Below are positions 8,349-8,422 of a stretch of 64,000 nucleotides of DNA, piece by piece. Under the pieces are notes generated by a model. The model did not search any database. It worked only from the letters and a program-made list of their open reading frames with translations, and was not told the origin of the DNA. The translations under genes were made by a program, and so were the position numbers. Where the stretch lies: NCBI RefSeq assembly GCF_041886205.1, contig NZ_CP169029.1; one strand, written 5' to 3'. Position 1 is the first letter of the stretch, and each line of letters starts with the position of its first letter. This DNA is from Escherichia coli (GTDB lineage: Bacteria; Pseudomonadota; Gammaproteobacteria; Enterobacterales; Enterobacteriaceae).

Positions 8349-8422
8349 GCCGGATGTGATGACGCATCCGGCAACTGCGCCATAATGCCTGATGCGACGC
8401 TAAACGCGTCTTTTCAGGCGCA
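8349..8422. repeat. Pair of REP-like palindromic units (BIME-like) between cbpM and torD
   Basis: GCCGGATGTGATGACGCATCCGGC and GCCTGATGCGACGC...GCGTCTTTTCAGGCGCA imperfect palindromes. Confidence 0.6.

Follow-up and report, generated by a model that had tools for sequence, protein, structure and literature searches.

REP units at three gene junctions of a 64-kb Escherichia coli window and a deletion-made hybrid hairpin beside one of them

Palindromic sequences lie at three gene junctions of the E. coli chromosome segment analyzed here (64 kb; hereafter the window), which raises the question of whether they are members of the REP repeat family and what they do for the neighboring genes. The window is inverted relative to K-12 MG1655. 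Of 5,426 complete genomes of E. coli, 5,420 matched a stretch of 801 bp that surrounds the first site and covers cbpA, cbpM and torD; the open reading frames of the window agreed with the K-12 order appCBXA / etk-etp-gfc ... torCAD / cbpMA. An earlier note on this DNA had named these genes correctly and had placed palindromes at the three junctions, where we found them with an offset of 1-4 nt. No Rfam family was found at the three sites, the RefSeq annotations of MG1655 and W3110 hold no repeat_region rows for REPs, and the RepRanger supplements do not mention these genes. Rfam matches were seen elsewhere in the window: a cspA thermoregulator at 19103-19525 (minus strand, 159 bits), presumably the 5' UTR of cspG by K-12 synteny, and a tRNA of 85 nt at 39456-39540 (plus strand, 57.5 bits), which lies beyond the hya operon by K-12 synteny.

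The program nhmmer was used to search the window with profiles made from REP copies (15 of the Y type and 9 of the Z2 type) of four unrelated 50-kb pieces of K-12 (200 kb). These copies were located with the published consensus GCCGGATGCGGCGTGAACGCCTTATCCGGCCTACGA (PMC12306157) and a Z2 seed, and they sat where REPs are expected, for example between malE and malF and on both flanks of rayT. A Z1 seed had no match in the 200-kb sample, so the profiles cover the Y and Z2 types only; none of the window units resembles Z1. Three units were recognized in the window scan, namely 29151-29186 by the Y profile (E 5e-9) and both 8385-8419 and 30588-30625 by the Z2 profile (E 1.1e-8 and 8.3e-6, respectively), and the 64-kb window contained no other REP-profile match with an E-value below 0.03. 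The three units also proved to be repeated sequences. Across the 5,426 complete genomes, 29148-29187 was found in at least 40 places per genome, 8384-8424 in at least 40 places in nearly all genomes and 30586-30627 in a median of 23 places. The hairpin at 8347-8374 failed the REP profiles (best E 0.19, over half of the model only) and was single-copy in the same genomes, with a median of one place. The earlier note had proposed a profile search as the way to refute REP identity; its call was borne out for the three units and fell for the left part of its first interval, 8349-8422.

All hairpins at the three sites folded stably as RNA, with energies between -18.8 and -26.8 kcal/mol and z values between -4.0 and -7.7; for each hairpin none of 200 dinucleotide shuffles folded equally well. 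An internal mismatch bulge was predicted in 29150-29183 and 8387-8423 and was absent from 30590-30625, which has a bulge-free 14-bp stem. The GTAG tetranucleotide is conserved 5' of the REP palindrome (PMC8266576), and one of the three units kept it (the etk unit, 29183-29180 on the minus strand); GTAA was present at 30625-30622 and ATGC at 8423-8420. Alignment of the window to the K-12 sequence revealed orthologous REPs in K-12 for the window units. We conclude that all three are genuine REPs, one of the Y type and two of the Z2 type. This kind of repeat is already known, and the window copies are ordinary. The combined REP profile additionally scored stretches inside IS1 in the K-12 pieces (L001 16263-16293 in IS1D, E 6e-5; L008 38160-38192 in IS1I); the IS1 stretch ...GCGACGCTGGGGCGTCTTATGAGCC... 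resembles the Z2 core, which may be chance or an old relationship.

The arrangement of the flanking genes was not the same at the three junctions. The genes cbpM (plus strand, stop codon 8337-8339) and torD (minus strand, stop codon 8432-8434) converge on a gap of 92 nt, and etk (plus strand, stop codon 29131-29133) converges with appA (minus strand, stop codon 29253-29255). The third unit lies between appX (30631-30723, stop codon 30631-30633) and appA (29253-30551 or 29253-30581), which are both on the minus strand and stand in tandem inside one operon. The annotated K-12 appA start corresponds to window position 30551; an in-frame ATG is also present at 30579-30581 (minus strand), 10 codons 5' of that start, and the reading frame that begins there reaches within 8 nt of the REP. 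The description of all three junctions as convergent was therefore correct for cbpM/torD and etk/appA and incorrect for appX/appA. Likewise, the statement that the palindromes mark operon ends is not true of all three, because the appX-appA site is located within appCBXA, one transcription unit in the literature, where appCBA is treated as such (PMC4222967). All of the REP units are extragenic and occupy gaps between annotated genes, two convergent and one tandem, which matches the general REP distribution of about 60% between convergent and about 40% between tandem genes (bioRxiv 10.64898/2026.03.23.713779). With three units where about 8 were predicted from the K-12 sample (about 25 units in 200 kb), the window is somewhat REP-poor.

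The cbpM/torD gap contains one complete REP and one structure of a different origin. The Z2-type REP at 8387-8423 has its GTAG-first orientation on the minus strand, with the tetranucleotide decayed to ATGC, and on the torD mRNA its stem begins 12 nt past the torD stop codon. It folds at -18.8 kcal/mol on the plus strand and -20.1 kcal/mol on the minus strand, the internal mismatch bulge included. Beside it, the hairpin at 8347-8374 begins 7 nt past the stop codon of cbpM and has a perfect 12-bp stem with the loop AUGA (-20.6 kcal/mol, z -5.4). Between the two, a head-to-head BIME-2 linker, (A)CTGCGCCATAAT, is kept at 8375-8386; the linker ACTGCGCCATAAT likewise joins Y and Z2 units at this locus in the five-unit BIME-2 of ST131 and in K-12. 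A promoter-like match at 8359-8386 was treated as chance. The terminator scan found no intrinsic terminator-like site in the gap, so the REP hairpins are its only strong structures.

Comparison with K-12 revealed how the 8347-8374 hairpin arose. The K-12 gap measures 151 nt, and its three units are a Y-like one that points right, a Y in inverted orientation and a Z2; in the alignment, the window allele lacked 59 nt of this gap. When a deletion between two CGCATC repeats of the K-12 gap was simulated, the repeats belonging to the 3' arm of unit 1 and the head arm of unit 2, respectively, the outcome was the window gap with two SNPs. The hairpin thus joins one REP's 5' arm to the head arm of the neighboring inverted Y REP, and it was shown to be a deletion-made fusion of two REP arms and not a member of the REP family. 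The 59-bp loss between these 6-bp direct repeats probably occurred by replication slippage across the palindrome. REP-associated rearrangement, which the earlier note had mentioned as a property of such sites, has an example here, the window allele being the K-12 allele minus exactly 59 bp between the CGCATC repeats.

The same junction varied widely among strains. The collapsed allele, with 8347-8374 at full length, was present in 1,928 of the 5,426 genomes and the K-12-like allele of three units in 1,769, while in a further 1,051 the best match to the K-12-allele query had only 80-90% identity. Sampled rows of this last class (ST131, E10 and others) were multi-unit BIME-2 alleles. In ST131, the gap measures 254 nt and holds five units in the order Z2>, <Y, Z2>, <Y, Z2>, joined by tail-to-tail linkers of 16 nt and head-to-head linkers of 13 nt, an arrangement shared with the BIME-2 clusters on both sides of rayT in K-12; in strain E10, there are at least six units. 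Unit number at cbpM/torD therefore ranges between strains from one REP plus the hybrid to at least six. At least two complete, alternating Y/Z2 units with short conserved linkers, the arrangement by which we recognized a BIME-2, were found at the orthologous locus in ST131 and K-12 and were not found in the window. Since complete units do not alternate there, the cbpM/torD site of the window is a remnant of a variable BIME-2. The term BIME-like accordingly suits this junction, as a remnant only, and does not suit the etk and appX-appA units, which are solo REPs.

The solo Y-type REP behind etk, at 29150-29183, is oriented on the minus strand and has an intact GTAG (29183-29180). It agreed with the published consensus (PMC12306157) at 32 of 36 positions and folded with z of about -4 on both strands. 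On the etk mRNA, its stem starts at 29149, 15 nt past the etk stop codon; relative to K-12, a 5-bp indel (AAGGT, 29140-29144) shifts this distance from 10 to 15 nt, and 15 nt is the edge of the reported window of less than 16 nt for REP effects on translation. The first base of the unit is also changed from G to A, so that the consensus pair G..C and the K-12 pair G..T correspond to A..T in the window. The etk transcript has its own intrinsic terminator at 29217-29248 on the plus strand, composed of a hairpin (29217-29242) with an 11-bp stem and a T-run; it folds at -17.4 kcal/mol (z -4.5) and is not a REP. This terminator sits 34 nt downstream of the etk REP, which is therefore not needed for termination. 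Its loop is one base off K-12 (GTAG versus GTAA), and the same hairpin, read on the appA strand, has an upstream A-run and no downstream U-run.

The solo Z2-like REP inside appCBXA, at 30590-30625 (minus strand), departs from the family pattern, in that its 14-bp stem lacks the bulge and GTAG has become GTAA. The K-12 copy has the canonical ...CAGGCCTAC, and the window copy has ...CAGACTTAC. On the mRNA, which is read from the minus strand, the stem starts 9 nt past the appX stop codon, and 38 nt separate its end from the annotated start of appA. The hairpin is more stable on this mRNA-sense strand (-26.8 kcal/mol, z -7.7) than on the plus strand (-18.9 kcal/mol), because the changes give G-U pairs, and the change at 30620 is a U-G wobble on the mRNA strand. 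The junction was kept in 5,394 of the 5,426 genomes. Both 30590-30625 and the 8347-8374 hybrid are "perfected" palindromes without the usual AA/GC bulge; for 30590-30625, one may speculate that the perfect stem stems from template-switch correction within a quasi-palindrome.

Our reading of the three junctions is that they carry ordinary old REPs (the Y unit after etk, the Z2 unit before the torD stop codon and the Z2-like unit between appX and appA), together with a hybrid hairpin produced by the 59-bp loss, and that these structures would have the RNA roles reported for REPs; we put the probability of this reading at roughly 0.85. The RNA role is likely here by analogy with the literature on the family. 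REPs are reported to serve as exonuclease barriers and partial Rho-dependent terminators, and tandem gene pairs that carry them show upstream-biased expression; their effects are context-dependent, and mRNA half-lives are not uniformly changed (preprint, bioRxiv 10.64898/2026.03.23.713779). In the window, the units would be transcribed within the 3' UTRs of cbpM, torD, etk and probably appA, or within the appX-appA intercistronic RNA. Their G+C-rich hairpins may block 3'-to-5' exonucleases, protecting the upstream message, and may partly attenuate read-through with the assistance of Rho. They may also slow terminating ribosomes, which is proposed because each stem begins less than 16 nt after a stop codon (7 nt for cbpM, 12 nt for torD, 15 nt for etk and 9 nt for appX). 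At appX-appA, such effects would favor appCBX over appA.

The alternative that fares best regards the units as neutral relics of selfish, RAYT-mobilised REP/BIME elements, which are tolerated after stop codons and have no effect on their neighbors; we consider it doubtful, though deserving of serious weight. The GTAG tetranucleotide is indispensable for the E. coli TnpA(REP), which tolerates no mutation of it (PMC8266576), and its loss at 8420-8423 and its change to GTAA at 30622-30625 fit relics. Since only the etk unit keeps GTAG, it alone is a plausible substrate for TnpA(REP)/RAYT, and the other units are, to judge from their sequences, probably immobile. The decay of the copies, seen in these two units and in the point changes between strains, is equally compatible with functionless neutral relics. 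The unit number also varies freely among strains at cbpM/torD, and the etk/appA junction sequence was found in just 3,738 of the 5,426 genomes; the observation that half-lives are not uniformly affected by REPs (bioRxiv 10.64898/2026.03.23.713779) points the same way. The appX-appA unit, however, is at the same place in nearly all of the genomes, and its hairpin is far more stable on the mRNA strand, which argues against the absence of any role at this junction. Moreover, the changes between strains tend to keep pairing, as in the etk pair and the U-G pair at 30620, although the numbers are small.

The persistence of the appX-appA unit is the starting point of a more specific, tentative proposal, in which this REP would be a domesticated, immobile RNA element that uncouples the expression of cytochrome bd-II (appCBX) from that of the phytase (appA), and the cbpM/torD collapse would be a natural allelic series. 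Here the hairpin would stabilise the upstream message, stall ribosomes at the appX stop codon and attenuate read-through. The proposal is drawn from the retention of the unit at the same spot in 99% of the complete genomes, its perfect stem, the loss of GTAG in the window strain and the mRNA-strand stability. We found in the literature no experimental study of the appX-appA REP or of appCBXA polarity at its hairpin. When YdeO was induced, RT-qPCR revealed that appA rose by log10 1.72 versus 2.64 for appC (PMC4222967); this smaller induction is compatible with attenuation at the hairpin, as circumstantial evidence, and a promoter of its own or a higher basal level of appA might account for it instead. 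If the domesticated element is real, the 59-bp collapse in about one third of genomes would let REP dosage be tested against cbpM/torD output.

A role at the level of DNA, with the units serving as IHF sites (BIME-1/RIB) and gyrase sites (BIME-2) through which local supercoiling is organised where transcription units converge, seems improbable. IHF binding is described for the linker that separates the REPs of BIME-1, and strong gyrase binding for BIME-2 and atypical BIMEs (PMC2817692). Two of the three sites do have convergent genes on either side, an arrangement in which positive supercoils build up, and cbpM/torD is a true BIME-2 in other strains, of which the window keeps one head-to-head junction of Y arm, linker and Z2. 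The window strain has nevertheless lost most of this BIME-2, the etk and appX-appA units are solo REPs, and appX-appA is not convergent. The IHF consensus WATCAANNNNTTR was absent within one mismatch from the three gaps (8340-8431, 29134-29252 and 30552-30630), against a background of about one such match per kb in the window, and neither a Z1 unit nor an inverted REP pair with a long, BIME-1-type linker was found at any junction; the IHF binding suggested in the earlier note thus finds no counterpart in the sequence. Very improbable, finally, is the idea that the hairpins are intrinsic (Rho-independent) terminators or chance palindromes outside any repeat family: they are G+C-rich and stand right after stop codons, and overlap with Rho-independent terminators has been reported for a few REPs, but a T-run is missing behind all four hairpins. 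The terminator scan detected only the separate 29217-29242 hairpin in the etk/appA gap and nothing in the cbpM/torD gap, and the profile E-values, the copy numbers and the shuffles exclude chance; for the three REP units, the profile and copy-number tests refute this idea.

The finding itself matters little. Among the intergenic repeats of E. coli, REPs are the most abundant and have been known the longest, and the window copies have K-12 orthologues. Its useful outcome is corrective: one junction is intra-operon, IHF is without sequence support and the left half of the first interval proves to be a hybrid that a deletion created. Additionally, cbpM/torD shows on a modest scale how REPs give rise to microdeletions and copy-number polymorphism in nature, and its series of alleles could be used to study how REPs affect 3'-UTR regulation.

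We compared the window units with the REP types Y and Z2 of E. coli (Stern 1984; Gilson/Bachellier; Ton-Hoang 2012, as given in PMC8266576 and PMC12306157). These are imperfect palindromes of about 35 nt with the head GCC(G/T)GATGCG, the tail CTTATC(C/A)GGCCTAC and an internal mismatch bulge, and they are extragenic, lie just past stop codons and occur in tens to hundreds of copies per genome. All of these features were confirmed for 29150-29183 and 8387-8423, and most of them for 30590-30625. The differences from the types are the loss of GTAG in 8387-8423 (ATGC), the GTAA and the bulge-free 14-bp stem of 30590-30625, and 8347-8374, which is a non-member. With BIME-1 or RIB/RIP elements, in which Y and Z1 are inverted around an IHF-binding linker, the window shares only the REP building block; unlike them, its sites are without Z1, an inverted long-linker pair and an IHF consensus. 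In BIME-2, a gyrase-binding element, Y and Z2 units alternate with short linkers (as in REP325 of yjdM-yjdN and in the clusters on either side of rayT in K-12). At the window cbpM/torD site, the final head-to-head linker and the final Z2 unit have been retained; unlike a BIME-2, this cluster has collapsed to one REP and a hybrid hairpin through the 59-bp deletion. The appX-appA unit is similar to those of malE-malF and yjdM-REP325-yjdN, as it is located between co-directional genes of one operon and close behind the upstream stop codon; malE-malF has three units and yjdMN has 12, whereas appX-appA has a single one.
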